From Phycisphaeraceae bacterium (GTDB lineage: Bacteria > Planctomycetota > Phycisphaerae > Phycisphaerales > Phycisphaeraceae), in contig OY771506.1 in the NCBI GenBank assembly GCA_963674705.1, positions 5,216,001-5,280,000 on the forward strand: a DNA stretch of 64,000 nt. Reading direction: 5' to 3'. Under the pieces are notes generated by a model, which was not told the origin of the DNA, searched no databases, and worked only from the letters and a program-made list of their open reading frames with translations. A program made the position numbers and the translations under genes. Position 1 is the first letter of the stretch; each line of letters begins with the position of its first letter. Positions 27,441 through 48,306 of this stretch are shown in pieces.

Positions 27441-28826
27441 TCAATCAACAAGCGCTTTACCCCCCGCTGAAATCCGCGTAGAATTAGTATCAACGTGGGC
27501 CGTGTAGCTCAGCTGGATAGAGCGGCTGCCTCCGGAGCAGCAGGTCAGAGGTTCGAATCCTCTCACGGTCATTAGCCCACCGGTGAAACAATCTGCAATA
27601 ACCGGAATACCCCTGAAATCCTCGGAAGATTTTGAGCAACCGACTAACTCTCGGCGGCTTGATTTCTGGTCGTTTCCGGTGGTTTCGGACATCTTCTGCG
27701 CCGCATTATGCGCCGCTCTTGATTCGAGCCCTGCCGCCCGGTCAAAGTGGGCGTCGGTCAGTTGCAGGTAATGAGCCGCGGCGACGGCTTCACTGTTGCC
27801 AAGCCACTTGCAGACAACGTGGATGGGATACGCTTCGGCCAGCTCTGTCTCCCGTGTGCTGCGGAGGTTTTGGTACAGCTTGGGCCAAGGCGCCAGGCCT
27901 GCCCGCTTGATGATCCGGTGCAGTTGTGTTCGCAGGTTGGTCCGACTGTCTAGGTATCGCGTGACCACGTGGACATCACCAGGCTCGGCCTGCTCGAATG
28001 CTTCCATCAGGATCGGACGCAGTTCGGGAAACAGCGGGATCATCCTGCTCTCACCACCGGGATGATGCTCAGTCTTCGGGCTCGTGACATGTATTCGGTT
28101 GTGTTCCCAGTTGATGTCCTCCCAGGTCAAGGCCAGCACTTCAGACGGGCAGCGCAGGCCACCAAATCGGGCAAGCGCAAAGATCAATTGCCACTGTACA
28201 TCAGGACAGTGATCCAACACCTTCCGAGCATCTTCACGTGACACGAAGTGATAACGTTTCGGATTGGCCCTCACGTTAGCGGCTAAACCTTCGAACGGGT
28301 TGGAGACGATCAGCCCCCCTTTCATCGCAGACTTGAAAAACTGCCTCGCCCTACCGATCGTGCGGCGTGCTGTGTTTTCAGCCATGCCCTGTGTAGCCAG
28401 GTGCAAGCGGAATGCTTCGGCATCAGCCGGCGTGATGTCTCTCATCGACCGCGGCGTCGTGAAGTATCCGAGCAGGTGATCCCGGGTGATTTCGAGATTG
28501 CGGCGCGTGCCCGGTTTGATGTCCTGCCGTCTTTCGATGTACGTGTTAATGAACACTTCAAGAGTGGACGTGTCACGAGCTTTGCACAGTCCCACTTTAG
28601 CAAGTTTCTTGTGCAGCACGTCATCAAGCGACGCGAGCCAGCGTGAAGTATCATCACGTGGAGCGTGCTTATGAATGGCGGAGGCGACCAGATCCTCAAC
28701 CTTGACCTTGACCGATTCGGCATGCCGAAGCGATAGCTTCCCGAGCCGGATCGTCCGACGTCGACCATCGGCGCCGAAGAACACAAGGCGCTTACGTCCA
28801 CCAGGATCATTGCATATACTCGCCAT
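27441..28826 (-). CDS. int: Tyrosine recombinase (phage-type integrase), 461 aa; ORF reads through attL and antisense across the tRNA
   Basis: GGLRCPSEVLAL, PKT, YQNLR, WLGNS, AHY catalytic-region motifs; ATG 28826 follows the xis stop. Confidence 0.92.
   Translation of the reverse strand: MASICNDPGGRKRLVFFGADGRRRTIRLGKLSLRHAESVKVKVEDLVASAIHKHAPRDDTSRWLASLDDVLHKKLAKVGLCKARDTSTLEVFINTYIERRQDIKPGTRRNLEITRDHLLGYFTTPRSMRDITPADAEAFRLHLATQGMAENTARRTIGRARQFFKSAMKGGLIVSNPFEGLAANVRANPKRYHFVSREDARKVLDHCPDVQWQLIFALARFGGLRCPSEVLALTWEDINWEHNRIHVTSPKTEHHPGGESRMIPLFPELRPILMEAFEQAEPGDVHVVTRYLDSRTNLRTQLHRIIKRAGLAPWPKLYQNLRSTRETELAEAYPIHVVCKWLGNSEAVAAAHYLQLTDAHFDRAAGLESRAAHNAAQKMSETTGNDQKSSRRELVGCSKSSEDFRGIPVIADCFTGGLMTVRGFEPLTCCSGGSRSIQLSYTAHVDTNSTRISAGGKALVD
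27498..27571 (+). tRNA. tRNA-Arg(CCG), CCA not encoded
   Basis: Acceptor GGCCGTG/CACGGTC, D arm GCTC/GAGC, anticodon arm GCTGC-CTCCGGA-GCAGC, T arm AGAGG-TTCGAAT-CCTCT. Confidence 0.96.
27559..27573 (+). repeat. attL core CCTCTCACGGTCATT (tRNA 3' end)
   Basis: Exact copy at 48293-48307. Confidence 0.9.
27697..27716 (+). promoter_or_regulatory. Putative integrase arm-type site pair (left arm)
   Basis: TGCGCCGCATTATGCGCCGC; 19/20 identical to 48223-48242. Confidence 0.7.
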
Positions 28827-28827
28827 A

Positions 28828-29046
28828 TCACTCACCTGCTTCACGGATTGTATCAACACGCTTGGACTTGTCGATGAATTCTCGGAGGTCGGCGGGATCG
28901 ATGCGCACACTCCGGCCGAACCTGACTGCGGGCAACTCACCCGACTTCACCAGGCTGTACACCGTGCGCCCTGTCACGCCGAGCATCTTGCCGGCGTCAT
29001 CGTAGGACAACAAACACTCTGTCGGGTTATGGATTGCAGCGGTCAT
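28828..29046 (-). CDS. xis: Excisionase-like HTH DNA-binding protein
   Basis: LLSYDDAGKMLGVTGRTVYSLVKSGELPAVRFGRSVRIDPADLREFI; directly upstream of int. Confidence 0.85.
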   Translation of the reverse strand: MTAAIHNPTECLLSYDDAGKMLGVTGRTVYSLVKSGELPAVRFGRSVRIDPADLREFIDKSKRVDTIREAGE

Positions 29047-29059
29047 ACTTCATCTCCAA

Positions 29060-29266
29060 TTACGTTGCTTTCCCAGTCTGAATATCTTGGCGATTGCCCT
29101 GCATGTCGTGATTGATTGGCTGAACCGATACACACCGCAGCCCGTGGCTTCGCAATAGCCTCTTGAGCACGCTTCGCAGCCTGTCCACCGGCATACGTTG
29201 ATACATATCACGGACGGCCAGCTCGGTTTTGATGTGGAGAACAAACTCAGTCGGACGCTGATTCAT
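29060..29266 (-). CDS. Small basic hypothetical protein of the rep-xis-int operon
   Basis: 4-bp overlap with the rep stop; RLRSVLKRLLRSHGLRCVSV. Confidence 0.6.
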   Translation of the reverse strand: MNQRPTEFVLHIKTELAVRDMYQRMPVDRLRSVLKRLLRSHGLRCVSVQPINHDMQGNRQDIQTGKAT

Positions 29267-30147
29267 GTAAACACCGCCTCACTAATTCGGCCCACAGGCA
29301 GTGTGTGCCCATCGATCACAACGCCCTGGCTGTTAGCCCCTGCGTTCATCCCGGGTGTAATGACGAGTGTCTTTTCGTCTAGTGTGATGCTTGCGATGTA
29401 ACCGTCACGACAGGCAGTTGCGATGTCCCCGGGCGTAGGCTGTTTGGTAGGCCCATCACCGTCACGCAATCGCCCAATCATCACGCCGACCCGGTTTTTC
29501 GGATTACCCGTGATTGTGAGCCAATGGCGGATAACGGTATCAGCGGTGGTAATCTCGGCGAGTTCCGCGGCTTTCGATTTCGTTACCCCAATTCGGACCA
29601 TCGCAGCAGAAGCCGCGTTGTTGCTGGTTTGTTCCGGTGCCTTCTTAATACATTCGTCTGGCCGCCGGGCCAGTGTTTCCGCGCCGCCGGGCCAGTGTTT
29701 ATGCGCCGTGTGACCAGTGTTTATTGCGCCGTCGGGACAGTGTTTCCCAGTATTATCACTTGCCGTCGGGACAGTGTTTCCATCCACCAAGATGCCGCCC
29801 AATACACTGGCCGGACGGACAGGGTTTAACAGATGGTATCTGTTCGACCTCGAGCGTCCACCCTTGCCCCGACCTGACCCGGTTCGGTCGCCACGGTCGA
29901 CGGCGATCAAGCAACAGTCCTCCAAATTTTTAATGCATTTAACTGTGTTGCTCTCAGACATTCGTGCCAGCTCTGCAAGTAGTTTTAGCCCGGGCCAGAC
30001 AACACGGTCGCTCGAACACTTACCACTCGCGAATCGTGTTAATTGTGTGTAAACATCACGAGCACCGCCACGTACATCACGCCACTCTTGAGAGTCAAGC
30101 ACGTTGGCAGGTATCATGGAAAAACCTGGGCGATGTTCACCCATCAC
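29263..30147 (-). CDS. Phage-type replication initiator with N-terminal winged HTH
   Basis: FSMIP..ARDVYTQL..WPGLKLLAELARMSESNTVKCIKNLEDCCLI..SNRYHL pattern; internal iteron array. Confidence 0.72.
   Translation of the reverse strand: MMGEHRPGFSMIPANVLDSQEWRDVRGGARDVYTQLTRFASGKCSSDRVVWPGLKLLAELARMSESNTVKCIKNLEDCCLIAVDRGDRTGSGRGKGGRSRSNRYHLLNPVRPASVLGGILVDGNTVPTASDNTGKHCPDGAINTGHTAHKHWPGGAETLARRPDECIKKAPEQTSNNAASAAMVRIGVTKSKAAELAEITTADTVIRHWLTITGNPKNRVGVMIGRLRDGDGPTKQPTPGDIATACRDGYIASITLDEKTLVITPGMNAGANSQGVVIDGHTLPVGRISEAVFT
29661..29779. repeat. Five iteron-like direct repeats inside the initiator gene (putative origin)
   Basis: GCCG-N6-CAGTGTTT at 29661, 29683, 29705, 29728, 29762 (spacing 22, 22, 23, 34). 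Confidence 0.75.
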
Positions 30148-30334
30148 TCCGCCCCTTCAAGTTGTAAGAGGAAAAGTGCATCCCTAATATGGAATTGTGA
30201 GTGAACCGAGTGAAATGTGAGGGTAAGATATTCATAGATCGCCTCGCCGCTTGGCGCTCGCCCTTCAAATTTCGAGCGTTATGCGACGCTTTTCATACGT
30301 TGAATATGAAGTTGCCTAGCACGATCAGCATGCA

Positions 30335-30562
30335 TCAGGTCGAAGGAGCAACCGCGGGACACCCAGCATCAATCCATTGGCGGACTTCATCCGAGCGCCA
30401 ACGAACGAGGTTGTAGCCGAGTCTGATCGGTTGAGGCGTTTGATTACGCTTGGCCATTCTCATCACGGTACACGCGGACACGTTTAGCAACTTTGCAACG
30501 TCGCCAACCGTGAGCAGCTCAGATTTTTTACGATCGGGTTTGGTAGCTTGGGGCTGGGTCAT
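30335..30562 (-). CDS. AlpA-family phage transcriptional regulator
   Basis: LLTVGDVAKLLNVSACTVMRM..PQPIRLGYNLVRWRSDEVRQWIDAGCP; GGAGG RBS. Confidence 0.85.
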   Translation of the reverse strand: MTQPQATKPDRKKSELLTVGDVAKLLNVSACTVMRMAKRNQTPQPIRLGYNLVRWRSDEVRQWIDAGCPAVAPST

Positions 30563-30772
30563 AGCGAAAAACCTCCACTCAGCGCGTCACCCGCCATCGA
30601 CGGCATGCTCGCTCGGGAGGTCATTAGCCTGGAAATGCGAAAATGTGCCGCTCGCGGTTCCGGCAAATCCGCAAAAATGTGGATTAGCAACCAGTAGAAA
30701 TGATAAAACAACAACTATAGCAATGGGTTATGAATTAAAAGAAAACCCAAACCACTTCGCCGCTCTACATAC

Positions 30773-31050
30773 TTGTTGTCATACGACCTGCCCGACCGCG
30801 ATGCGGCCAAGGTATGGATCATCCGTAACCAGCTTGGGCGCCGCAATCTCAACCACTTCCAGCGTGGGCGTCTGGCGCTCGAGCTTGAAGATCTGATTAT
30901 GGGGCGTGCAAAAGACAAGCAACGTGCAGCCGGTGGAGCGGTTCCGCAGAAATCTGCAGAAGCGCCTATCAAGACAGACAAAGAACTCGCGGTAATCGCC
31001 GGCGTCTCGCACGACACCATCCACAAAATCAAGCGCATTGAAAAGTCGAA
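30773..31050 (+). pseudogene. Internal fragment of a ParB-like protein
   Basis: DRDAAKVWIIRNQLGRRNL..ELAVIAGVSHDTI HTH; N-terminal domain absent, 3' end runs antisense into the next ORF. Confidence 0.55.
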
Positions 31051-31069
31051 TGACACTGAACATGGCGCA

Positions 31070-31651
31070 CTATTCAGCTCGATCAAGTCCCACTCTGCCG
31101 ATGACACTTGTACCTTCACCCTCTGGCGATGCTTTCAGATTGACTGCAGACACCGCATCTTCGATCTTCGGGATCCTGCCGCGGTTCCAGAAACTGCGAT
31201 CACTTCTTGGATCATTGATTAGTTGGACCAGCTTGGCGGGATCACCAGCCATCACGATCAAGACCTTGGCTCTTTCATGAATCATTTGCAGATATTCCAC
31301 CATGCCCGGCTTCGGTAGGTCTATGCGATCAAGAAAAAGTGGCCGTGGATTGGAAACGAGTGAAGCATTGATCTTGTCAATAACGTCGCTTCGGGTTCTG
31401 GCTATTGGTGCACCTACCGCAGTAGCAATGGCCTTGAGGAACTGCATATCTCTCTTCCACGAATCACACTCCAAGTAAATACCGCCACGGTTTACGGCCT
31501 GTTCCTGTAGCAACTCGCTTCGCATCGCATCATCGGTAAGTGTGAGACAACCATTCGCCGAAACTTCACGCCAAGCTTGATGGCTTCGGTAACGTGTCCG
31601 GCCGGCGTCGGGAACTTCATTGGGTCCAGGAATAGTGGTTCCATGCTTCAC
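31070..31651 (-). CDS. Degenerate AAA-family (MuB-like) ATPase-fold protein
   Basis: FLKAIATAVG..PRPLFLDRID..EYLQMIHERAKVLIVMAG resembles the MuB-type core; no Walker A, Walker B Glu replaced. Confidence 0.45.
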   Translation of the reverse strand: MKHGTTIPGPNEVPDAGRTRYRSHQAWREVSANGCLTLTDDAMRSELLQEQAVNRGGIYLECDSWKRDMQFLKAIATAVGAPIARTRSDVIDKINASLVSNPRPLFLDRIDLPKPGMVEYLQMIHERAKVLIVMAGDPAKLVQLINDPRSDRSFWNRGRIPKIEDAVSAVNLKASPEGEGTSVIGRVGLDRAE

Positions 31652-31952
31652 CTGCTTTTGTTGGATTCGGCCCGAGCATCGATAGATCTGCAGGTGATTG
31701 ACCGATCGATGCCCAGGCCCCAGGCGGTAGCGAGCCGCTGGCCCAACGTGTTGATTATAACCCGGTTTACCTAAATCGGTTAGTACTGAGGCACATCATA
31801 CGATGTTGTTACACATTGTGTCAGCAATATTACAGGATTAAGTGTGGATTCAACGACTGGTGCTTAGTGCTACTATGCGATAATGAGTTCGGAACATGAT
31901 AGTTCTACGAGCTTTGAAATGTGCACAAGTGTGTCTTTGCTATGAAAAATGA

Positions 31953-32600
31953 CTAGATGTCATTGATTGAGACTATTTGTTCGAGGTTGATAGACATCTT
32001 ACGACCACTTGGTTCAGCTTCACCATTCACATAGTAACCATCGTCCTGAAGATGCAATTCCTGCGGGACAAAGTTAAATGAAGTGGTATTCTCGATGGGC
32101 GCTTCGGTAAGATTTATTCTGCATAGACCATTGTCATTGATCATACGCATCATAGTCAGAAAGTGTTTTTTAGTGTTTGATGTCATCTGCGGTATGCGAT
32201 CAGAATCAACGGTGATAACATCTACAATCTCTTTACAAGCATCGCGTACTGTAGGTGTCACCTGATTCAGTAACTTGTTTATGGCATCAACACCACGATC
32301 AAAAAGCGGATGCCCCGTGCACTTGAGAGCATATTTATGGACCATCAGCAATCCGAGTATCTCGCTTGTGCTTAAATCCGTTGTCGGAATTGTCATGTTA
32401 GTGTCCATACGATATTCGCCCCGATTTGAGCATATTGGTTTGAGACCAATATCTGACAAGCATTTCATGTCCCGGAACAGAGTTCTGCGGCTGATTTGCA
32501 GCTGATGGATTAGATCCTGGATGGTGAGGCCATTGCTGTTTTGTATCAGCATTGCTAACCGCAACAGGCGAGTGATCCGGGATGCGCGAGTGGAATCCAT
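31953..32600 (-). CDS. HTH + shortened WYL-like transcriptional regulator
   Basis: RITRLLRL..TIQDLIHQLQISRRTLFRDMKCLSDIG, LSTSEILGL, C-terminal SH3-like segment; 215 aa. Confidence 0.7.
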   Translation of the reverse strand: MDSTRASRITRLLRLAMLIQNSNGLTIQDLIHQLQISRRTLFRDMKCLSDIGLKPICSNRGEYRMDTNMTIPTTDLSTSEILGLLMVHKYALKCTGHPLFDRGVDAINKLLNQVTPTVRDACKEIVDVITVDSDRIPQMTSNTKKHFLTMMRMINDNGLCRINLTEAPIENTTSFNFVPQELHLQDDGYYVNGEAEPSGRKMSINLEQIVSINDI

Positions 32601-32708
32601 AATCTAACTTTTGGTATGACGAAAGACATGAACTAAATGAAAATGGGGGGCACCTGAGGCTGGGCGAAGGGGGATAAGCCCATCTGATCCTGCAGGGCCC
32701 CCCGGTGG

Positions 32709-33071
32709 CTATGTTGTGGATACGATTGCTTGTCCCGAGCTGCAGTCCTTTGAACTTCCATTCCAAAGGCAGTACGTCCCGGTCGGATCATCAGAAGGTT
32801 CTCCGAGCCGGAAGTTAGTAATGCCTTGGCAACCGGATGGTGTAGAACCGTAATTAATGATTTGTAGTGCCCAAGATTGGTCCCCCCCTTCACTGATTGA
32901 GTACAGATTAACTAATGTAAAGTCACCACTGCTTCCGCTATAAACTGAATCGCTGACTTTGCTTAATGTCTGTTGTCCCTGACACGGAGAAATAACAGAT
33001 AAGAGCAGCGTGTCCGGAAGCGCTCCCAATCCCTCTCGATTACGCAAAATGGTACTCTCTAAGACATCCAT
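32709..33071 (-). CDS. Hypothetical Cys/Ser-rich protein
   Basis: 120-aa ORF co-oriented with the WYL-like gene; no recognised family. Confidence 0.4.
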   Translation of the reverse strand: MDVLESTILRNREGLGALPDTLLLSVISPCQGQQTLSKVSDSVYSGSSGDFTLVNLYSISEGGDQSWALQIINYGSTPSGCQGITNFRLGEPSDDPTGTYCLWNGSSKDCSSGQAIVSTT

Positions 33072-33287
33072 AGGTACTAACCCTTAAAAATATTAATATG
33101 TTGATGTGAAGCCAGTTATAACCATTTATAACCATCTGCCCCTTTACACAGGGCAGATATTTCGCTAGTATCCCCCTTCGCGAAATAGCCGTGTCCATAA
33201 GTGAATACGCATGCATTTACGGCATCTTGCGCAGGTAGGGAGAAATGGGCTTGTGTTTCTTCTTTTCTCTTATCTGCGAGGTGGAAC

Positions 33288-33950
33288 ATGTCGTGTCGGA
33301 TTGCTCATATCCCACTGATCCTGCTACTTCTAGTGATTACTCTTCAATCTACGCAAGGTGCGATTATCACCGAGTTGTCCGCGATGCGCGGGCCTGTTCA
33401 GGATGGTGTTGCACTACCCCTGGCAATACCGACAACTTATGTCGGTAATGACGAGGTTGAGTTCAATGTGAACTTTTCTCAACCGTTTGTGGTTTTGGGA
33501 ATTACAGCAAGCATTCCCAAAGTGCAGTTTCTGTTCTATGTTGATGTTTCCGAAGCCGGTGGTACGACAGAGTATTTTTTCAACTTTGCATATCAGAACC
33601 ACACAGGTATTACATGGACCGATCTGTATTACACTATTTCTGCAGAATCATTAACAGGTACTCCAATAGTCGTACCGGGTTTAGACTTTGACTGGCCGGA
33701 CAAAACGGCGCTTGGGATGTCATCCCTCAATTTTGCCTATGTGGACCATCAAGAGACAATACTGCATTGGTATGGAGGTCAAGTAGTCGATCCGACAATT
33801 GATACGACGCTTGTACCTGTCGATGTACCGGATTTCTCTGAAGATTACTACATGGTCATCACGCTTGAAGTACCCGAACCATCAGCATTCACTGCCTTAA
33901 TGGTCATGGCGGGGGCTTGTGTGTACAGAAGGCAGATCCGGCTGAGCTAA
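33288..33950 (+). CDS. PEP-CTERM secreted protein
   Basis: Signal peptide; [25 protein letters not shown] tail; GAGG RBS before ATG 33288. Confidence 0.75.
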
Positions 33951-34666
33951 TGGTTGGCAAACCACGAGTAGTCTTGATCAGCATCAGATATGTTGTCCGA
34001 GAGTTCACTTAGGGTAAGTCGTACAACAGAACTGTCGGCGTAGACAATATTCGCGGCTTCCCGGCCATTGTGGTGCATGCCCACACCCCACGTGACACTC
34101 CTTGCATAGGATGTGATTGGCATATACTGGAAGGTCATAGCTGTTCTACCAAAATAGAACAGCTCGGGGTCTGCAAACCATGGATAGTCTGAGGGTTTCT
34201 GTATCTCGTATCGGCTTTTACCTTCATTTAACACGGTCGCGGTTGAGTTCCATATCGAGTTGATTGAATACCCCCAGGTAATGCCCGCAAATAGAACGGT
34301 GTCGTTCTGGTCAATTATCGATGGGCAGGCATTGAACGTAGGAGGTTCTTCCTCCGAAAGTACCGGTGCATCCCCATAAACATTATTCATCAAATGAATC
34401 CATGTAGGATTGTTGATGGGGTCTGATGAGGCGTGCCGCGTAAGTGGGATACGGTCTTTATTGTTGTCCAGTGCGATTTCCCAGAAGGTCTGTATTTGGC
34501 GCAGGTTTGACATACACAGCGTGGCACGTGCTGACTTCCTGGCCGCGCCCAGAGCAGGCAGAAGCAAGCTAAATAGAATCGCAATGATCGCTATCACCAC
34601 AAGTAATTCGATTAGCGTAAAACCGCCCACGATCGAATCGGATTGCCGTCTGTTAACACCCCTCAT
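33947..34666 (-). CDS. Prepilin-type N-terminal cleavage/methylation protein (planctomycete DUF1559-like)
   Basis: [42 protein letters not shown]-terminal [17 protein letters not shown] (H-X9-DG-like). Confidence 0.85.
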
Positions 34667-37596
34667 CGTGTACTCCAGCGGTAATAGCGATTCAATCCCA
34701 AGCCTATGACTTCCTCTCCGCTTTCAGTGAACTGTATTGTGGTAACAAGTCCTTCGATTTTGTCCTCAATGACATCCAGGACAAAGCCATGCTCCACTGA
34801 CCACACAGCAATTCGCTCGCCGGCTGTTATAAGGCGCTTCCCGTCAGGGGATAGTGCGAGTGATAGTATTGCACCAAGATCGCCCGCGCCCTCCATCCGC
34901 TTTTGCTCACCTGACACAACATCGATAACCGTCACTTCGTATTTACTGTCAACCGTTGCCACAATCGGAGATCGTCCGGCAACTGCCAGATAAATAATCG
35001 GATTACTGCCAAGCAGGTTGTTATACACCTGCCGTTTTAATTGAATATCTCTGACCTCAAGATAGTACTTCCCATCGGCATGCCTGATCATCACGATTTG
35101 TGGGTTGCTGGTACGAAGCCATTTTGCCGGCCCACGTCGATCAAACCAATGTACCGGATCGCCCCCGGCCTTTGGCCAGACAAGCACCTCTTGAGTGTTT
35201 GAGGCAACTATGAATGTACTGTGAGGCGAATAATCCAGCCAGAGTGCGGGCTGTAATGCCATCCGAATGGACTCAGAAGATAGTCTGTCTGCAAGAATAC
35301 TTACAAGCGAGTCGTTGTCAGCTACAGCAATTTGATGTGTGCGGTTATCCACCGCAATCGCCGATGTCATGCTGGGAAATTCGAATTGATCTAGCAACTT
35401 GCCATCTGATCTTTCACACCCAGAATCGAGCACATAAATATCGTTGCCTTCATTTGCACACGCAATATGCATGCCGTCGCTACTGACCGCAGATACCAGT
35501 GCGTGGCCGGATGGCCACATGTTCATTTCATGGATACCCCAATTTGTTTCCCACTTTTTCAGGATTCCGTTCGTGTCGAGGGAGTAGAGCCTCTCGCCGC
35601 TAAGATCAAACTTCGTCTTTACTATTGGATCAGCATGCCCGTATACAGGGCGATATGAGTTATTGCGCAGATCGACAAGGTAAATCGTACCGCTACTTGT
35701 GCCAGCAGAAAGCATCCCGGCATTATTGCTTGATGAGAGTGACCCCGCTTCCACAGGAAGTTCCACAATGATGGTTCTGTCTGTAGGTGACGACAAATCA
35801 TAATCCATCACATATCCCCCGGTATAACCAACGAAAAGGTGGCCGCCAAGAGATGTCAATGACAATGGCGATTCCCTCTCGAACTCCGAATTGAACTCTG
35901 TAACTGACAGCTTGTGAAGATCAAGCACATTAAAAGAAGTGTCATACCAGATAAGTCTGTTTGCTTCGTGGTCGAAAGTGACTGGCCCCCAAACCGACAT
36001 GGCTTGCTGTGAATAGATAACAGAATTAACCGCCATGTCGTATATAAACATTTCATCCGAATTCTTCAGCAGGATATAGCGACCGTTGTCACTCACGCGT
36101 AATAACAGAGCACCAGTTTCTGCCAAAATACTCGGGGGGGTATTAAGTGACGTTTCACGGTTCACAAATACATAGCGCCCTGAGCCATCAATTCCTATGA
36201 TGTAGTTTGCGCTGGGGCTGATGAATACGGGAGACAAAGTATGTTCTAACGGCGTGTTAAGTACTGAATCGGTCTTGTCCGAAGTAACCTTGCCAACCCG
36301 GCCTGAGGTCAGGATATAAAAGACATCTCCCGTTGGACCAATATTGAAGTCACGGATCCGACTCGGACTAAACTTCCAGGTATTAACTGATTGATCGGTC
36401 AGTTGTGACAAATACTTCCATTCCCATTGCCTGTGCTGTGGTTCAGTTTCTTCCAGCAGGTGCCTGGCTAGCTGTAACTCATCAGATGTAATTCTTTCGT
36501 GGGCGGAACGCATTGTATCCCTGTATGACTCAGCGCCGCTGCGCGATAATCGGGCTTGATTTACGACCTCTCTCTGATAAAACGCATATGAAAATACAGC
36601 CACCAGAAGAGTAATGGTCGCCACCACAGTCGCGCATTGGCGTAGCAGTATTCGATTTCGTTTAGCCCACAATAGTGTACGGCGCGTGTAGGTGTATGAG
36701 CGTGCTGAAATGGGTCGAAGGTCTAGCCAGAGACGCAACTCCCGGGCTAAGGCGCCCCCATCAGAGTACCGAGCCGATGTAATATTTGAAGTAGCCTTCT
36801 CGATGATCTTAAGCAGATCCAAATATTGATACGTGTCGCAATCTCGATCTGCTCCCGTGATCAGCATCTGGAGCAATCTGCCTAAAGCATAAACGTCTGC
36901 GCGAGAGCCAATGCTGACATTGGTCCCAAACTGCTCTGGCGCTGCGTATCCACTTGTCCCCCCGATATATGCTTGGCATGAATTTAATTCACGAGAGCCT
37001 TCTATTGCACGGGCTAAGCCAAAATCGACGATGTGAGGTAGACCATCTTCGCTAATCAATACATTAGTCGGTTTTATGTCAAGATGAACGACACTGTTGT
37101 CGTGAGCGTAGCCGATAGCATCGCTAACTCGTGCCACAAGATCTACGACCTGGGTTAACTTAAGGTGCTTTGCATGGACAAAGGTGTCAATTGGACATCC
37201 TTCGATCAACTCCATGACGTAAAAATACTCAAGACGATCAAGCCCACTATCGAACACACGAACTATAGCCGGATGCCTGAGCTTTGCTGCTAATAGCACT
37301 TCTATATGGAACAGCGATGCCGCACTTGGTTTATTTAGTAATTCATGCTTGAGAGACTTTAAGGCGACGATTTGTCCAGTCCCTAATTGCTTAGCTTTCC
37401 ATACTGTCCCCATGCCCCCTTGGCCGATCTTGCTGAGAATGCTGTAACCCTCTTTGGCGGCGGGCTGTTGAATGGAGATGTATTCCGGCCCGACATCATC
37501 CAACGCTGACTCATCTGTGACAGCAAGAGCCATTCCCAGCAACTCACGTGCTGCCATATCAGATACGAGTTCAGATGGATCGTTGTATCTACTCAT
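34663..37596 (-). CDS. Ser/Thr protein kinase with TM segment and WD40-like propellers
   Basis: [59 protein letters not shown] repeats. Confidence 0.9.
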
Positions 37597-37644
37597 ATCG
37601 AATATCTAAGAACGCTATGGCTGGATAACAAAGCAAATAATCCA

Positions 37645-38370
37645 TTAACCGGTTGTAGGCCCTGAAAGTGCGATGAATAAGTCTTTGATTTCGTCCTCAA
37701 CTTCTCGTCCAGTAAAAACATACTCACTCAACACGTCTCGTACTACGCGGCCGAACATTCTCTTGCTGGTTACAAGCAAGTTGCTGACCTGTGAATTGGA
37801 TGATGAGCCAAACTCACGCACGATCTGACTGATCGGGACTGGTTTCTCATTGTTGAAGATTGGTTTCAGAAGCCTTGCATCAAACACTTCCCACAGATCA
37901 GGCCGATCCACTTGTATGCATTCAAGTTCCATTTGCTTGATAGCTAAAGACACTACCTGCTTCCCCCAGTCGCGATCAAAATCTCGGTCTGGGGTGTTTG
38001 TGTTTTCCGTAGCATCTTCTGCGATCGTACTCAGTGAAGCTATTGACTCTGGAGATCGATGAGAAGCATTACTACGTCTGATTCGGTCTCTTGCATAATT
38101 ACTTAAAACTGTTCTGATTAAGTTACGGAACCGACCCTGTGACTTATCGGCACGTTCAAGAAGATTGGAATCAAGTATTCGATCAGCCAAAAAATCATTC
38201 AGCAGATCATCTGCATCACTAGTTGCAGCAAGTCGATGCCGGACAATGTGACGCTTTAGTGCAGGACTATAGCGCGTGATGATCAGTTCAAGCGCGGCTC
38301 GTTTTTTGAGAGGATCGCCGGTTTCGACAGCCTCAAAGAGAGACCAGCGTGTTGTTGGAAACGGATCCAT
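37645..38370 (-). CDS. ECF sigma factor of the planctomycete kinase-associated type
   Basis: FPTTRWSL, DADDLLNDFL, GRFRNLIRTVLSNY, FDRDW; directly upstream of the kinase. Confidence 0.8.
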   Translation of the reverse strand: MDPFPTTRWSLFEAVETGDPLKKRAALELIITRYSPALKRHIVRHRLAATSDADDLLNDFLADRILDSNLLERADKSQGRFRNLIRTVLSNYARDRIRRSNASHRSPESIASLSTIAEDATENTNTPDRDFDRDWGKQVVSLAIKQMELECIQVDRPDLWEVFDARLLKPIFNNEKPVPISQIVREFGSSSNSQVSNLLVTSKRMFGRVVRDVLSEYVFTGREVEDEIKDLFIALSGPTTG

Positions 38371-41422: not shown

Positions 41423-42571
41423 ATGTTCCAATTCATCCTGGTCGTCCTGCTGGCGGTTTTCATATCTGCGACAGTTGTATTGGCGATCTTTGTGGCCGAG
41501 TTCTACGGCCGCGGCGGCAGGACCATCATCAGGCAGTGGCGTATCGCCCTATCAAAGCGTCGCCAGGTTAACGATGCTCTGAAACGCGCCAGCGCCGGCG
41601 AGGCTTATGCAGCCAGAACCATCCAAGAAAAACGTGTCATAGAACAAAAGATGGAGATGCTGGAGAAGAAAACAGAAGGTCGGCTTTCATGCATGGGCAG
41701 CTACATCATCTCAGAGCAATGTGGCGATCACATCAAGGGGATACGGGCAAACAACTATCACGCGAAAGAGAAGAAGATCCTTCGATCAATCGAGGTCGCC
41801 GCCAAGAACGGCTACCACCTGCCGAAGACTGAGCGCGAACAACTGAGCCGCATGCTCAAGCAAGCACACGATGAGGCGATACGGGCGGAGAAGGAAAAGG
41901 AACGCCAGGCGGAGATACGTGCACAGATGCGTGAGGAAGAGAAGCGGGAGCGTGAGTTCCAGCGTGCCATCAAAGAAGCTGAGAAGGAAAAGAATCTCAA
42001 GAAAGCAGCTCTTGAAGAAGCCATCCGGTTGCTCGGTGATCAGCACAGCGAAGAGGTTGACCGATTGAAAGCCGAACTCGCCGAAGCGGAGGCCAAGGCA
42101 GAACGAACCATCAGCATGGCGCAACAGACACGCGCCGGCCACATCTACATCATCAGCAACATCGGGAGCTTTGGAAAGAACGTGTTCAAGGTCGGCATGA
42201 CCAGACGGCTTGAGCCGATGGAGCGGGTCAAAGAACTTGGTGACGCATCCGTCCCCTTCTCATTCGACGTCCATGCCATGATCAGCTCGGACGACGCCCC
42301 TGCCTTGGAAACCCAATTACATCAGGACCTGGACAAGCACCGCGTGAACCGTGTGAATTATCGAAAAGAATTCTTCAGGGTCGACTTGAACACGATCATC
42401 CAGTGTGTTCGCAAAAGGCATGGCGAGGTTGAATATCAGGCCGACCCCGAAGCATTGGAGTATCTTGAGACACTGGCCCTGCTCGAAGGGGATGAGGATG
42501 TCGAGCAATTGATCGATCGTGATGCAGATTTGGTTGAAGAGGATATGCAGACTGACACAACAAAACGGTAA
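41423..42571 (+). CDS. Membrane-anchored DUF4041 + T5orf172 (GIY-YIG) nuclease; candidate anti-phage protein
   Basis: N-terminal TM; coiled coil (IRAQMREEEK); AGHIYIISNIGSFGKNVFKVGMTRRLEPMERVKELGDASVPF..RKEFF. Confidence 0.85.
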   Translation: MFQFILVVLLAVFISATVVLAIFVAEFYGRGGRTIIRQWRIALSKRRQVNDALKRASAGEAYAARTIQEKRVIEQKMEMLEKKTEGRLSCMGSYIISEQCGDHIKGIRANNYHAKEKKILRSIEVAAKNGYHLPKTEREQLSRMLKQAHDEAIRAEKEKERQAEIRAQMREEEKREREFQRAIKEAEKEKNLKKAALEEAIRLLGDQHSEEVDRLKAELAEAEAKAERTISMAQQTRAGHIYIISNIGSFGKNVFKVGMTRRLEPMERVKELGDASVPFSFDVHAMISSDDAPALETQLHQDLDKHRVNRVNYRKEFFRVDLNTIIQCVRKRHGEVEYQADPEALEYLETLALLEGDEDVEQLIDRDADLVEEDMQTDTTKR

Positions 42572-42589
42572 TATGCCTGGAGATTTGTT

Positions 42590-43000
42590 ATGCCCAAATA
42601 CACGGTTAGCGGGATCGATAGGGAGGATGGCGGGGTCCGCTTCACCACGGTCACAGCAAACAACTCAGACGATGCAGCCAAGATGGTCGGTTTCCAGGTT
42701 GAGAAAGTCGAGCAGGTTCATGACCAACCATCGCCGCCGGCAAAGCCGCCTTCATCAAGGACACCCAGCTATCCCGTGATGGCGATCTACATCGTTCTGC
42801 TGCTGGTGATCGGCTACCTGCTGGTTATCATTGGCTGCCTGACCTTTTTGATTTCACTGCTGCCTGCTGATGGCCATGAGGGGGCACAAATAGGTGGCGG
42901 GTTGTTCGCACTCTACGCCGTCCCTACCGGCCTTGGCCTCGCGTTGATGGGTGAGGTGTTACGAGCCTTCCGCGACATCGCACGCAATAGCTTCAGGTGA
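42590..43000 (+). CDS. Small 2-TM membrane protein
   Basis: Soluble N-terminus, Pro-rich linker, two TM helices, GEVLRAFRDIARN. Confidence 0.65.
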   Translation: MPKYTVSGIDREDGGVRFTTVTANNSDDAAKMVGFQVEKVEQVHDQPSPPAKPPSSRTPSYPVMAIYIVLLLVIGYLLVIIGCLTFLISLLPADGHEGAQIGGGLFALYAVPTGLGLALMGEVLRAFRDIARNSFR

Positions 43001-43073
43001 ACCGAGCGAATCGTTGGGTCCGCTCACACGGGCTATGGGTAACATATGACTGACTCAACACGGACGGTAAGCG

Positions 43074-43313
43074 ATGCATCAACTGCCAGATCTACCGGAT
43101 AAGAAGTGGCTCAAGCCTTGTGACCTCATGGAATACTTCGGGGTATCTAGGTCAACACTAGGCCGAATGGTGAAGGATGGCTGGCTCCGAAAACCTGACA
43201 CGAGTTTAGGTGAACGCAATCCCCGTTGGTGGGCGCCAATGGTTGATGAGTATGCCCGCCGGCAGATTGAGGCAATAGAGTCAGCACGAAAGCAGCAATT
43301 CAACCAAACCTGA
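43074..43313 (+). CDS. AlpA-like HTH protein
   Basis: WLKPCDLMEYFGVSRSTLGRMVKDGWLRKP..PRWW. Confidence 0.72.
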   Translation: MHQLPDLPDKKWLKPCDLMEYFGVSRSTLGRMVKDGWLRKPDTSLGERNPRWWAPMVDEYARRQIEAIESARKQQFNQT

Positions 43314-43393
43314 AGGTGGGATTGCCAACCAAAGTTAAAATGCAAAGGCATGACTTGCCTAGGACTTCACCGAGGCATTGAATTTACACCAGC

Positions 43394-43813
43394 TTACGCA
43401 TTTCTTTCTAATTCGACCGTTTCACCCAGGAATGAATACTGTGCGTGAATATGAAAAATACCTTCAAGCAGTGTGACGCAATTACGAACCATGATCGGTA
43501 TCAAGCAGGGCTTTCCAACTAGTTTTTCGAAGCTGATATAGATCATGTCATCTGTTTGCATTTCCTGTTTGGTAATACAGCTAATCCCTCCGATAGACAG
43601 GTCAACAGCATAGGCTTCACATAGATCCTCATATTCGCCCTCACCAACTTGGTGCAACAAGGAGACCTTGGCGCCAAAGTAAAATCGATGGTGGCGCCGT
43701 CGCTCCCTTTGTTCTTGATCACGCTTCTCCAGTCCACGTACAAGTTTACCAATGGCTCTTCGAAGTTGCTCATTCGAAGTAAGTAAATTCAACTGTGTCA
43801 TTTGCTTCCCCAA
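43394..43813 (-). CDS. PilZ domain protein (c-di-GMP receptor)
   Basis: ERRRHHR (RxxxR) and DLSIGG (DxSxGG). Confidence 0.78.
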   Translation of the reverse strand: MGKQMTQLNLLTSNEQLRRAIGKLVRGLEKRDQEQRERRRHHRFYFGAKVSLLHQVGEGEYEDLCEAYAVDLSIGGISCITKQEMQTDDMIYISFEKLVGKPCLIPIMVRNCVTLLEGIFHIHAQYSFLGETVELERNA

Positions 43814-44193
43814 AATGATCGCATGGTTAATAACTGACTCAAGTCACGTGAAAATACCAATCTGATAATCATGTGAATACTTGTACGCATACAGACACAC
43901 CACGCTAGCATTGTCGGCTAACCATTGGGCCAGTCTCAAATTGCGAGTGCCAACACCGTGTCACTGATTTACTATTTAAGTTCTATGGCAATGTAAATTG
44001 TTGCAGCATAACTTTAGTTAGGCTCTACCATTGGTAGGTATCAATGGTTGATGAGCATTCCCCGTCGGTGCTATGTGAAGTCGACCGATCCCACCGTGGT
44101 TGCCGCACTCGCAGAGGTACGTATCAACGTCAACCAAGCGTACCGCATGGTGGTAGGACCGAAGCCAGCTTACAGTGAATTATGATTCGCGAC

Positions 44194-44583
44194 TCAAGCG
44201 GTAGATTCAACCACCTCGCCACTCGCCTGCTCGCCCACGGTGACGTCCAGCATCCGCCGGCCGCTACCAGCCAGCCCGTGCCCATCGGTCCAGGCGACGC
44301 ACCACACGGGCGTCAGGGCCGGCGTGGGCGCCTCGGTGTCGTGGTCCCACACGACCAGCACGGCCCCGGTACCGCGGTCGCGTACACGCCACATTACGCG
44401 GCTGTGCTTAGGATCGCCGGGGAAGCCGGGATCATCACGCCAATGGGGTTGGCCTAACGCTTCAGCGATGCGGTCGTAGGGTGTGCGCAGTGTACCCGTG
44501 TGCTGGTATTTGATCCGCTCGGTAGTGGGAATGGGTTGAAGCTCAATCATGAGTAGTCGGCGATCCTGCTGGGTGTGGGGCAT
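44194..44583 (-). CDS. Hypothetical protein, last gene of the tail operon
   Basis: Starts 17 bp after the upstream stop; GTLRTPYDRIAEALGQP..W motifs. Confidence 0.55.
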   Translation of the reverse strand: MPHTQQDRRLLMIELQPIPTTERIKYQHTGTLRTPYDRIAEALGQPHWRDDPGFPGDPKHSRVMWRVRDRGTGAVLVVWDHDTEAPTPALTPVWCVAWTDGHGLAGSGRRMLDVTVGEQASGEVVESTA

Positions 44584-44600
44584 CTCAATCGGTCACCAGT

Positions 44601-44879
44601 CTACCGCACGTCGCGGCGTAGGTTGTAGATGTACTGAACCAATTCGGCCGATCGCCCATCTTCCTCAATCAGCTTGCGGCACATCTGCGAGTCGCCCAGT
44701 GCCCCAAATCCGCATAGCCTCTCGCCGAGTTCCGCCGCTGCGTCATGTGCTACAGGATCGGTGAGGATCCACCCCATCATGGCGTGTATCTCTTCCGTGC
44801 TAACGCCGTTGGCCATGCGGCCGACTGATTCACGGACCCGCTTCTCAAGCTGTTGAATGCGGTTTCTTACAGTGCTCAT
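44601..44879 (-). CDS. Hypothetical helical protein
   Basis: 4-bp overlap with the upstream gene; MSTVRNRIQQLEKR. Confidence 0.6.
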   Translation of the reverse strand: MSTVRNRIQQLEKRVRESVGRMANGVSTEEIHAMMGWILTDPVAHDAAAELGERLCGFGALGDSQMCRKLIEEDGRSAELVQYIYNLRRDVR

Positions 44880-45214
44880 AATGAATCTATCCCCATCTGC
44901 TGTTCAAGCTGGTCGAGGCGTTCGATCAGGTCGGCTTCGATTGGCTTACCGAGGCACCGGTCGAGTACTTCCTTGGCAGCCTGCACGTTGCCTTCAAGTG
45001 CCAGCTCCACCAGTTTCTTGACGATGTCGGTCAGTTCATCCTCGGTGACTGCGGTGAGCATAGTTGCTCGCAGCCTGTTCACTTGTTTGGCGTGTGGATT
45101 ACCCTTGCCACCCTTCCATCCAGGCAGAAAACGGCCCGTGTCGGGGTCTCGCCCATTTCCATTGGACCCATTAAGTGATGGATTCTCATTGTCGCTTTTA
45201 TTTGCCATGGTCAT
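44876..45214 (-). CDS. DUF5681-like / small terminase subunit-like protein
   Basis: GRDPDTGRFLPGWKGGKGNP followed by IVKKLVELALEGNVQAAKEVLDRCLGKP. Confidence 0.62.
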   Translation of the reverse strand: MTMANKSDNENPSLNGSNGNGRDPDTGRFLPGWKGGKGNPHAKQVNRLRATMLTAVTEDELTDIVKKLVELALEGNVQAAKEVLDRCLGKPIEADLIERLDQLEQQMGIDSL

Positions 45215-45222
45215 ATCCCTTT

Positions 45223-47400
45223 TTACGTTGCTAGCGATGTCGCCGCTTGTTCAATCAACGCACTTAACGCGTCAAGATTTTCACTGACCCGGTTCATCGT
45301 GCCGGCGTTTTGCTGGGCGTTCTTTTCTTGCTTTTGCATGAATTCACGCTGTTGTTTGAGGAACTCTCGTCCGATCGCGTCGAACAAACCGGGTAACTCA
45401 TTGATCGTGTTGCCCAGGCCCTCTACTGACTGTTTGAGTTCGCCACCGGATACAACATCGGCCGCGTTGTAGGCTACATCATCGCTCGGCTTCGCCATCC
45501 GCCGCACAGCCGTCTCAAATCCACCCGGTCGGTCTGCCCCGCCTGATCCACCGACCATCACGTCAAACATGCTTCTGTTCGCCATGTCGTCCGATCCACC
45601 GGGCTGGCCAACGGTGTGTTGATTCGTCTGCATGCCGGAGTCTGACAGTTTCAGCCCATAGAGTGAGCCGATGATGCTTTTGAATGTCGCGTCTTCGGGT
45701 AATCCTAACTGGCTCTTGATGATGCCGATGGGGTCAAACTTCGGGTCTGACTGGCTGGCACGTTCGTTGTACTTATCCAAGAAACGGCGTTGCGCCTCTG
45801 TCAGTGTTGACAGCAGGTATTTTTCAAGGGAATCTTGAATCAGCCCCGCATTCTTCGGATTCTGAGCGGCCGCTTCATTTGCATCCTTAATCCGCTTCAG
45901 CGTTGCAGGCGATCCGAAGCCGGCCAGTATCTTGTCGGCCTCCAGTTCCGTGTTGGCTTTGTCCTGTGCGATCTTCCTGATGCGCTTGCGTGCGCCGGGG
46001 TCGCTCTCGTACCGGTCCGCAACCTCCGGATCACTGAGCATGCCTTCAAGTATCCGGTTAAACCGATCAGCAAACGGGGCTTTCAGCCGCCTCTTAGCAT
46101 CGTTGATCTGCTCGGGTGTGACCTTCCCCAACTCGATCGCATTGACACCCACACCGTACAGGTCGCCCTGACGCCCGGGCTCGGTGGGTGCGAACCTTGT
46201 GGCGATGTCGCCTATCAGGTCGCGGATGGGCTTGAGTGCATCGATCTGGCCGGCAGACTCACGAAGCGCAGCCGCGCCACGTTGTAAGACACCACCAGAC
46301 GATTTCTCAGCCGCTGCCAGTGACTTCTCATCGATGCCGAGGAATTTGGCCAGGCGTGGGGCGATGGTCTGGATTCCCCGACCGATAGCAGCAGCTACCT
46401 GCTTACCCATGGCCGCATAATCGAGCGAGCCCAGAATATCGAGCAGCGCAGCCGCACCGAGTTTGAAAGCTTTCTCCAACAGCCCGCCCAGTGTCTTAAA
46501 CAGGGCCGGTCCAAGCTGGATAATGCTTACCAAGATGCCCTTGGCAATGTCTTTGCCCTGATCGCCTTGTAGGCCGGCCAGAATGTCGCCGGTAAGTTCA
46601 GCAACATACTGGATCGCATCACGCACGAAACCGATTTTGACCACCCACCGCCCTACCTCACCAACGATGTCTTTGATGTTGCCGAAAATCGCGTTGTAGG
46701 TCAGATACAACTCATCACCCTGAAGGCCAAGCCGATGAGCACGCTTTTCCAATTCTTCAACGGTGCGATTCAGGGTTTTCGCTTGCTTGGCGGCGAGTTT
46801 GAGCCCTTGAAGTTCCTCCGCGCCAACGAAGATGCCGAAACGTTTGGGCGGTTCACCGCGGGCGATCGAATTCAGCAACTCTTCGATGTCGGGCCCGATG
46901 CTGTCTTGACGACCACGCGCTACGGCCAGGACCGTGAACGCCGAAATCAATCTTTCGATCTTCTCAACAGGGACATCGAGAATGCCCGCCTGGTTTGCCA
47001 ACTCTGAAGCGCGTGCGAAATCGAGCATGCCGGCCGATGCTGCGTTGATGCGACTGATATATCGGCCCGCCACCTTCTCAGTGACATCCAGTTGTTTGGC
47101 CAGTGCCTTGGTGCGCAACTCTAACGCTGAGGCGTTGCGGATAAGCCGGTCAGTCCCCAGCCCACCCAGCCCGATACCAATGATCGCTTGGATACTGGTA
47201 AGCACTCTGAAGGGTGCCATTAGCGCCTTAGCAAGAATGCTGCCGGCGACACCGATGCCCTTGAAGGATGCCGATGCAATCCTCCCCACGGACCTGAATG
47301 CACCACCGAGGCGATTCTCGACCATGCCGGCATCACGCCGAAGCTGTTTTTCAAGCTCTCTGCCGTCTGTCTGGATTTCCGCACCAATCACGATTGCCAT
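45223..47400 (-). CDS. Tape-measure-like protein (725 aa)
   Basis: Long Ala/Gly/Leu-rich amphipathic helical protein; GAGG RBS; directly downstream of a frameshifted chaperone gene. Confidence 0.78.
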   Translation of the reverse strand: MAIVIGAEIQTDGRELEKQLRRDAGMVENRLGGAFRSVGRIASASFKGIGVAGSILAKALMAPFRVLTSIQAIIGIGLGGLGTDRLIRNASALELRTKALAKQLDVTEKVAGRYISRINAASAGMLDFARASELANQAGILDVPVEKIERLISAFTVLAVARGRQDSIGPDIEELLNSIARGEPPKRFGIFVGAEELQGLKLAAKQAKTLNRTVEELEKRAHRLGLQGDELYLTYNAIFGNIKDIVGEVGRWVVKIGFVRDAIQYVAELTGDILAGLQGDQGKDIAKGILVSIIQLGPALFKTLGGLLEKAFKLGAAALLDILGSLDYAAMGKQVAAAIGRGIQTIAPRLAKFLGIDEKSLAAAEKSSGGVLQRGAAALRESAGQIDALKPIRDLIGDIATRFAPTEPGRQGDLYGVGVNAIELGKVTPEQINDAKRRLKAPFADRFNRILEGMLSDPEVADRYESDPGARKRIRKIAQDKANTELEADKILAGFGSPATLKRIKDANEAAAQNPKNAGLIQDSLEKYLLSTLTEAQRRFLDKYNERASQSDPKFDPIGIIKSQLGLPEDATFKSIIGSLYGLKLSDSGMQTNQHTVGQPGGSDDMANRSMFDVMVGGSGGADRPGGFETAVRRMAKPSDDVAYNAADVVSGGELKQSVEGLGNTINELPGLFDAIGREFLKQQREFMQKQEKNAQQNAGTMNRVSENLDALSALIEQAATSLAT

Positions 47401-47412
47401 GATGTACCTCGA

Positions 47413-47987
47413 TTATCTGGTTGCCCTCTCCGCTTCTTGTTCACGCTTGCGGAGGATGGCGGCGCAAAACGGATAGATTCTTGTTATGTAATCGCCGTAG
47501 TTCCGTTCGATGAAACTCGCATCGACGCCCGTTACCTCTTTAATCGCACCGAGCATTGACAGCCGGTGCATGATCACACACGCACCGACGTCGGGGCATT
47601 CGGCCCCGTTCAGGAATTGCTCGGTGCCTCGGATTTTCCCTCGATAGCGTCCGCCGATTCGTCATCACCACCGGACAGGTCGAAGCCGTTGGCCTTCAGC
47701 AGTTCGTCGTTAAACCACGGACCGAACGCCGGCTCCTGATGAACCACCGCATCAAGGGCACGAACCGAGTACGGCGCGGCGTTGCCGTCTGGGGTCTCGA
47801 CGCCTTCCCACTTGAGGACGCCAACGCCCTGCTGGGCCAGCTCTACGAACACGCCACCCATGCCGCCGTTACTGTTGGCCAGCAGCTTTGTTCGTTGCGT
47901 GTGGCCCAGCCGTTTGAAGGTGACAGTGATCCCCGTTGGCTCATGGGTCAGGGTGGTGGTCTGCTTGTGTTCAGCATTCAGTTTCAT
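47413..47987 (-). CDS. Tail assembly chaperone, frameshifted long form (gpGT-like)
   Basis: -1 slip at G GGA AAA (47640-47634) opens 73 further codons ending at TAA 47413, 12 bp before the tape-measure ATG. Confidence 0.72.
47610..47987 (-). CDS. Tail assembly chaperone, short form (gpG-like, 125 aa)
   Basis: VLKWEGVETPDGNAAPYS motif; ends EGKSEAPSNS; AAGGA RBS before ATG 47987. Confidence 0.75.
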   Translation of the reverse strand: MKLNAEHKQTTTLTHEPTGITVTFKRLGHTQRTKLLANSNGGMGGVFVELAQQGVGVLKWEGVETPDGNAAPYSVRALDAVVHQEPAFGPWFNDELLKANGFDLSGGDDESADAIEGKSEAPSNS

Positions 47988-48054
47988 GTTCAGTGTTCCT
48001 TGCCGGCTTGTGTGACACCCAGCGGCCACCGGCGGGCCGTGGGCTGGTGAGTGT

Positions 48055-48306
48055 TCATGTCTCGCGTGTCAGCGTCAGGATGGCCGCACGCCGGCCGGGG
48101 GACATCCGGGCCAGGGCGTTGATGTGATCAACCACCGCCGCCCTCTCGGCCTCGGGTATGGCGTTGAGCGCGTCGGCCAAGCCATCCAGATCAGGATTGT
48201 GAATTGTGGAAAACGCAGGCAGTGCGCCGCATTCTGCGCCGCCTACATACGAAAAGTCGATATTTCCCGGGAAATCGTAGGGGTGTTCACACCCTCTCAC
48301 GGTCAT
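48055..48306 (-). CDS. 83-codon ORF starting in the attR core; alternative integrase C-terminus in the excised circle
   Basis: Begins MTVRG, the same codons and frame in which int crosses attL. Confidence 0.55.
   Translation of the reverse strand: MTVRGCEHPYDFPGNIDFSYVGGAECGALPAFSTIHNPDLDGLADALNAIPEAERAAVVDHINALARMSPGRRAAILTLTRET
48223..48242 (+). promoter_or_regulatory. Putative integrase arm-type site pair (right arm)
   Basis: TGCGCCGCATTCTGCGCCGC, 50 bp inside attR. Confidence 0.7.

Follow-up and report, generated by a model that had tools for sequence, protein, structure and literature searches.

An attachment site inside the integrase gene of planctomycete elements exchanges a conserved C-terminal tail

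The arrangement in which the attachment (att) site lies inside the integrase gene is treated as a rarity, found in 'very few integrative elements' (PMC4701971; all papers are cited here from those parts of their text that were available). We describe it in a 20.7-kb element of a Phycisphaeraceae bacterium (assembly GCA_963674705.1). The element lies in the window, that is, the whole stretch of 64,000 nucleotides analysed (contig OY771506.1, positions 5,216,001 to 5,280,000 of the forward strand). Coordinates count from its first letter. The closest described system is the Myxococcus phage Mx8, with attP inside the integrase gene (int). Its integration swaps a C-terminus of 112 amino acids (aa) for 13 aa, and the enzyme is still active (PMC6070905, PMC4701971, PMC4383910). 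Mx9 is said to resemble Mx8. The truncated Mx8 integrase is reported to be less active (PMC4701971). Other systems alter a gene at att in different ways. SSV1-type splitting separates inactive halves, and self-disrupting recombinases have been called exclusively archaeal (PMC8371274). In mycobacteriophage systems of the BPs type, attP lies in the repressor gene and integration removes a degradation tag (PMC3694055). Finally, integrases of streptococcal integrative and conjugative elements at rumA carry att within their gene, and integration alters their C-terminus. They are serine recombinases with a protein-gene target, unlike the enzyme described here (PMC4701971).

The element, its target and the two parts of its integrase gene are the following (ORF, open reading frame).

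27559-48307, no strand: integrated element, a 20,734-bp unit plus the second core, from the core repeat and the gene content
27498-27571, plus strand: tRNA-Arg(CCG), the integration target, called by ARAGORN; sole tRNA in the window
27559-27573, plus strand: left att core, 15 bp, covering the T-stem 3' strand, acceptor stem, discriminator and 2 nt more; inside the int frame
48293-48307, plus strand: right att core, the identical 15 bp, containing the ATG of the tail ORF
27441-28826, minus strand: int, tyrosine integrase in its integrated form, 461 aa, from the ORF, domain matches and a structure model
27768-27770, minus strand: codon of the catalytic Tyr353, 65 codons before the core
48055-48306, minus strand: tail ORF, 83 codons, starting inside the right core and in frame with int across the core

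Read from 28826 toward the tRNA, int is free of stops up to the core, which it crosses at residue 419. It ends at 461 aa, 57 nt past the tRNA 5' end. It means that the antisense strand of tRNA-Arg(CCG) codes for the C-terminus of the integrated integrase. When the ends are joined in silico into a circle, int has 501 aa. Residues 1-423 are common to both forms, residue 424 is the first difference, and 38 residues are swapped for 78. An earlier sequence-only reading had described an int without a stop before attL, 461 aa long when integrated and 501 aa in the circle, with the 83-codon ORF at the far end; we reproduced all these numbers. A 499-aa int ORF from a GTG at 28940 was set aside; the homologues begin at the Met at 28826.

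The 15-bp core is a maximal exact repeat with just two copies in the 5.54-Mb genome. A related strain (run X4, contig of 32,642 bp) carries both flanks with about 4 kb between them, so the 20.7-kb stretch is accessory. The insert of about 4 kb in that strain, at the same tRNA-Arg site, differs from this element. The contigs listed for runs X1-X3 hold no attP or empty-site junction, and no RNA data set was listed among the holders. Contigs drop rare forms, not every loose end was displayed, and X1 and X2 may be the source of the window itself, so this is no evidence either way.

To place the locus among its relatives, we used a sample of the window and 81 relatives, picked from the listed matches by contig room and not by tail. 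They were found with profiles, single-protein searches having returned little: no viral loci, five loci in genome contigs, and for the tail only itself. A tRNA or transfer-messenger RNA (tmRNA) gene was called after the Tyr codon in 77 of the 82 loci. The int frame is open from 15 codons past Tyr to the 3' end of this gene in 73 of 75 relatives, namely those whose tRNA or tmRNA 3' end lies more than 150 nt away. The other two frames are open in 26 and 17 of the 75. A second core was located in 41 relatives; in the remainder, none lies within the 3-41 kb fetched. The far side of this core presents an in-frame ORF of at least 40 codons in 36 of the 41, against 9 and 17 in the other frames. We are therefore almost certain that the read-through goes beyond chance and that the in-frame tail is selected.

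The change is asymmetric. It consists of the loss or gain of a conserved tail, since the tRNA-derived end is unconserved. In 37 elements chosen for an open tail, the tRNA-antisense end counts 9-72 residues from the core and shows no conservation; it is predicted to be disordered in this integrase. The end specific to the circle counts 49-130 residues. Conservation of the latter is centred on one feature.

48106-48195, minus strand: conserved helical hairpin, tail residues 38-67, from a structure model and a leave-one-out profile

The tail model presents helices at residues 38-49, 52-67 and 70-80, the third being absent in most relatives. Its predicted local distance difference test (pLDDT) is 93-97 over residues 41-70. 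In the leave-one-out test, 26 of 42 elements reach at least 10 bits with the hairpin profile when read in frame; in the other five frames, none of the 42 does. The hairpin of the window scores 18.1 bits (best other frame, 0.3). Identity at the three codon positions of the hairpin is 0.42, 0.50 and 0.35, with 58% synonymous codons, which is a protein-level pattern. The arm block of the tail shows 0.61, 0.74 and 0.69 with 24% synonymous codons, a DNA-level pattern. A hydrophobic pattern is conserved inside the hairpin. The proportion of non-synonymous differences (pN) is below that of synonymous ones (pS) in 9 of 9 hand-picked related pairs, with pS near saturation.

The position of int on the tRNA is not fixed. 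Its frame relative to the T-loop varies (54, 12 and 9 relatives in the three registers), yet the hairpin stays in frame in six elements of the minor registers that carry it (L009, L103, L119, L124, L135, L141). The distance from Tyr to hairpin takes 19 values, between 97 and 134 codons, in 25 elements. The sequence-only reading had proposed that the integrated and circular states encode distinct integrase isoforms. Frame conservation and protein-level conservation of the far-side tail both back this proposal: on checking homologues, we found neither a general stop before att nor a far ORF lacking frame and amino-acid conservation. Four elements (L013, L021, L023 and L160, with far ends L039, L046, L054 and L160) have a shorter in-frame tail, in which one helix-like motif replaces the hairpin.

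The tail has no match in NCBIfam or PHROGs and none to a Pfam family above cut-off, and no Pfam family is common to two or more of 30 tails. Foldseek gives nothing for it at an expectation value (E) of 0.001, an inconclusive absence; the best Z obtained with VIA is 4.8. Two weak leads point to dimerisation helices of XRE type. The top sequence match in the PDB is C.Csp231I residues 67-96 (E 0.083, below significance), a region that supplies 75% of the dimer interface of that protein (PMC3115060). The dimerisation domain of TP901-1 CI superimposes with Z 3.8 and a root-mean-square deviation of 2.0 over 35 aligned residues, also below significance. The tentative likeness is in the two-helix pattern (helices 6-7 of C.Csp231I). 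The difference is that those domains sit on repressors, not on recombinases.

Natural fusions of the two parts of the gene give further backing to the isoforms. In one cluster at 90% identity, three of the four members are 534-aa fused integrases with the hairpin; the fourth, a short form of 452 aa, departs from them at the core. In IMG/VR, 9 of 79 viral loci (6 distinct) have the hairpin within the int ORF. Four of the 6 distinct fusions keep 14-21 nt of antisense tRNA end in the linker. In locus L007, the hairpin is fused through a short linker with no tRNA nearby.

The integrase family matches 37 of 401 phylum genomes with a single query and 187 of 401 class genomes with the profile; the class tally includes the unpublished genome G650, on which no other result rests. 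Four of the five relatives with named records belong to Phycisphaerae or Planctomycetia. The tail profile is broader still. It matches 10,528 clusters at 50% identity, and 86 of the best 150 clusters are ORFs of 90 aa or less. It also matches in 105 of the 401 phylum genomes. We followed 15 of these loci, chosen by contig room. A second core is present in 11, and joining puts the hairpin in frame behind an integrase of a different clade (502-622 aa); the other 4 have no second core in the stretch fetched. For two of the 11 (G389, G033), the join came from the next repeat, as the longest was that of a neighbouring island. This second clade barely aligns with the integrase of the window (best E 3e-5). 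In a quick tree, the only phylogeny made, it forms its own branch with support 97, two rows being under half filled. In three further loci (L257, L259, L272), a hairpin ORF in sense orientation follows closely after a tRNA or tmRNA gene. Some elements may thus use the hairpin module in the opposite orientation to the target.

The att region also presents repeats within coding sequence on both sides of the core.

27697-27716, plus strand: doubled 8-mer TGCGCCGC-N4-TGCGCCGC, inside the int coding sequence; likely arm-type binding site
48223-48242, plus strand: second doubled 8-mer in the same orientation, inside the tail ORF; likely partner arm-type site

Genome-wide, the doubled 8-mer occurs at just these two sites, 27697 and 48223. 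In 36 of the 37 open-tail elements, a 20-mer recurs between the left and right coding stretches with 16 or more of its 20 positions matching. Controls gave 1 of 370 (shuffled), 1 of 37 (inverted) and 544 of 1332 (cross-element pairs). The arm spans are phased at about 11 bp (R 0.78, reached in 0 of 2000 null draws; R 0.6-0.66 on the 13 distinct values), and a GAxSGA block in the tail is conserved at the DNA level. We read the repeats as probable arm-type sites on both sides of the core, and therefore the whole attP as coding DNA. As the sequence and the model suggest, attP would be a lambda-like site of about 230 bp with both arm-type repeats in coding sequence. The same stretch might double as DNA site and flexible protein linker.

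The ordered part of the integrase, as predicted, lies wholly before the core. PF00589 matches above cut-off. The predicted structure is ordered to about residue 364, and pLDDT falls below 50 for residues 363-461. A predicted arm-binding N-domain (about 1-51) is modelled as three strands and one helix (residues 3-51, block pLDDT 86-90), and the core-binding and catalytic domains extend to about 364. Tn1549 Int and lambda Int are the closest solved structures in Foldseek (E about 5e-10). Every catalytic residue and all ordered domains lie upstream of the core (Tyr 353, core 419). The sequence-only reading held that the catalytic motifs are kept in both forms. This stands for R225, K251, R322 and Y353, which all precede the swap, are invariant in an alignment of nine sequences and make up the R-K-R-Y core. 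It does not stand in full, as Q319 and N344 occupy the two places where tyrosine recombinases usually have His. No paralogue of int or of the tail was found in the same genome. Among cultured phages there is no close relative (best identity 24-31%). Directly upstream of int lies one further gene.

28828-29046, minus strand: Xis-like HTH_17 gene (PF12728, E 6.7e-13; phrog_66)

Its product is likely a directionality factor, as judged from these matches. Together, the catalytic core, the predicted N-domain and the putative arm-type repeats would place the integrase with the lambda type. The likeness to lambda Int and Tn1549 Int is in the three-domain model, the arm-type repeats flanking the core and the adjacent Xis-like gene. 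The attP of lambda is not part of its int coding sequence. In the planctomycete element the core and both arms are coding, and how the enzyme ends depends on the state of the element.

Compared with Mx8, the core likewise lies inside int past the catalytic domain, and a long element-encoded end is swapped for a shorter host-derived one (here 78 residues for 38). Mx8 Int even holds the same GLEP peptide, antisense to the T-loop, as the main planctomycete register. However, membership in the Mx8 Int sequence family was rejected. By sequence the two enzymes are not significantly linked (blastp E 0.022 over 149 columns), the hairpin profile scores below 0 bits on Mx8 Int, and Mx8 Int forms a separate long branch in the quick tree. 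The planctomycete module is also a small conserved tail found in two distant clades and many elements, with tRNA or tmRNA targets. The system works like Mx8, but it is a separate family with its own tail. The sequence-only reading had named SSV1 and mycobacteriophage systems as precedents, and in this it was wrong. The archaeal suicidal integrases (SSV1, pTN3, pT26-2) share the att site inside the integrase gene and tRNA targets (PMC8371274). In them the gene is split into inactive halves, whereas here the whole catalytic core remains in one ORF. We rejected the SSV1-type class, in which integration parts the N-terminal portion from the catalytic one: ordered domains and catalytic residues precede the core, and PF16795 (Phage_integr_3) is absent from the Pfam matches of the integrase at E 0.01. 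In BPs-type systems, integration also rewrites a C-terminus, which can so report the state of the element. There attP lies in the repressor gene; here att lies in int and a folded hairpin is removed. This class was rejected as well, the core being in int and the circle-form ends of the 37 elements having no common terminal motif.

The best explanation overall, to which we give somewhat better than even credence, is that tail loss tunes the integrase to the state of the element, with the circle form favouring integration. The crossover would fall inside int, 65 codons past the catalytic Tyr, and leave the inserted gene with a 38-residue tRNA-antisense end. Excision would restore the 78-residue end with its conserved two-helix hairpin. 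Mx8 and the XRE-type C-terminal hooks suggest by analogy that the hairpin may tether integrase subunits and make them more active on attP x attB. Without the tail, the chromosomal enzyme would have a complete catalytic core, yet be weaker and dependent on the adjacent Xis-like protein. Such an enzyme could keep the element stably inserted. From the same analogies, a regulatory role of the tail in favour of integration is rather probable, and self-association is a plausible means for it, at slightly less than an even chance.

Several observations weigh against this explanation. An in-frame tail is missing from 5 of the 41 relatives (L008, L015, L026, L029, L159), which have 0-7 codons or meet a stop ahead of the core, and 16 of the 42 elements score below 10 bits with the hairpin profile. 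The window hairpin is divergent, with 8.8 bits against the canonical profile, and its pN/pS is 0.85 with respect to the sister L002. Viral locus L190 has the hairpin out of frame. Among 77 viral loci with an aligned Tyr, 39 stop within 53 codons of it. In the quick tree, short forms are scattered across the clade, so the tail is dispensable family-wide. The elements are related, so the counts are not independent. The dimer leads are not significant, and Z below 5 is common for small helical pairs. Finally, a review holds that the swap in Mx8 alters the specificity of the enzyme and does not simply reduce its activity (PMC6070905).

The two C-termini could also act on stability, by setting the half-life of the enzyme. 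The folded tail would shield the circle form, whereas the chromosomal form, with its non-polar end from the tRNA, would be open to C-terminal proteases, leaving less enzyme once the element is integrated. The last residue is V, L, F or M in the integrated form of 22 of 37 elements, and in the circle form of 3 of 37. There is a precedent in BPs, where Rep and Int are controlled by C-terminal tags (PMC3694055). Nevertheless, such endings follow from the tRNA sequence, and their length varies (9-72 residues). No terminal motif is common to the circle forms, and the hydrophobic pattern within the hairpin fits a binding surface better than a tag. We regard this explanation as unlikely.

It is similarly unlikely, in our judgement, that the tail is an ordinary working part, lost as a by-product of a compact module with att in the gene. 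The chromosomal form would then be nearly inactive, and excision would occur through rare events or a fused enzyme from an incoming relative. The catalytic residues and the whole ordered model precede the swap, which speaks against such inactivity, as do the Xis-like gene retained beside int, the 39 of 77 viral homologues without any tail and the truncated Mx8 form, which remains active (PMC6070905). What it does account for is conservation confined to the end of the circle form, and archaeal suicidal integrases are indeed rescued in trans (PMC8371274).

Another explanation gives the stranded tail a function of its own. Translated from a start codon in the core, it would bind the hook of fused integrases, its own or incoming, as an inhibitor. 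SinI acting with SinR offers an analogy. In the window, the core supplies an ATG in the tail frame, and a co-oriented rhombosortase gene lies 52 bp upstream of it. Of 37 elements, 18 have a start codon in frame within or at the core (other frames, 4 and 3), and gene callers have recorded thousands of such stand-alone ORFs. However, these starts derive from the antisense of the tRNA 3' end, and the remaining 19 elements have none. The DNA upstream is host-derived and different at each site, and no promoter-like site was found in 47500-48700. We consider this improbable.

Chance read-through with a spurious ORF in GC-rich DNA, its apparent conservation coming from DNA binding sites, is hardly credible and already largely refuted by the frame and hairpin tests: the GAxSGA block is truly conserved at the DNA level and off-frame ORFs of at least 40 codons occur in 26 of 82 frames, but the in-frame excess on both sides, the synonymous hairpin codons, the frame kept across changes of tRNA register, the natural fusions and the second clade all argue against it.

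The tuning of the integrase by tail loss can be extended into a broader reading, which we put forward as a tentative possibility only. Planctomycete elements that target tRNA genes, from at least two deeply separate tyrosine-integrase clades, would share a portable dimerisation hook past attP, attached in the free circle alone. Integration would switch both oligomer state and direction, and the stranded hook may inhibit fused integrases in trans. If true, this reading would also explain more than 10,000 clusters of unnamed small 'hypothetical' proteins.

The principle of att in int is already known. In planctomycete elements, the tail swap at such a site is real and almost certainly selected. 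The arrangement is the usual layout of a common planctomycete family (187 of 401 class genomes), and the tail is reused by a second clade. Full-text literature yielded no description of the planctomycete system, subscription journals being mostly outside this coverage. Nothing on the att-in-int layout turned up in the passages searched of two recent island surveys (PMC12884075, PMC13626063). Databases of islands may include such elements and leave the swap unmentioned. Chromosomal annotations yield the tail-less isoform. Anyone who mines them for planctomycete tools may therefore clone the wrong isoform. Stranded integrase tails probably make up a very large family of small ORFs without names. 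The natural isoform pairs can serve to test directly whether the direction of a tyrosine integrase can be set by rewriting its own end.

The rest of the element includes a second helix-turn-helix gene and the following features.

28847-28874, minus strand: possible int promoter, a match to the sigma-70-like consensus (10 of 12, with TG) whose end lies 21 nt upstream of the int ATG
29263-30147, minus strand: replication-initiator-like gene (phrog_270, E 2.7e-6)

Support for the promoter is weak, with two sigma-70-like matches found and 0.9 expected. The replication-initiator-like gene suggests a replicating circular state. Inside it, at 29661-29783, lies a 22-nt direct repeat in four copies, possibly origin iterons. 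No capsid family was matched among the 23 element proteins scanned against PHROGs, so the element looks satellite-like or defective-prophage-like.

At 33947-38370 (minus strand), the cargo consists of an extracytoplasmic function (ECF)-like sigma factor, a Ser/Thr kinase with WD40 repeats and a prepilin-type N-methylation protein, at a low GC content of 46-50%. A 249-aa ORF at 33201-33950 (plus strand), with no NCBIfam match, ends in a VPEP motif, a hydrophobic stretch and basic residues, which we take to be a PEP-CTERM-like sorting signal. At 44876-47400 (minus strand), there is a DUF5681-like small protein (weak match) and a 725-aa Ala/Gly-rich protein without a family match, tape-measure-like by eye only. 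A T5orf172/MUG113-domain protein with a long coiled stretch lies at 41423-42571 (plus strand). The ORF at 30773-31222 (plus strand) has no Pfam or PHROGs match; its first half presumably resembles a ParB-like fragment, suggesting some decay of the element. Elsewhere in the host genome (G000:C1:622407-634804), 30 tRNA genes lie on a single strand within about 12.4 kb. Most of them are duplicates of isoacceptors found elsewhere, including a second tRNA-Arg(CCG).

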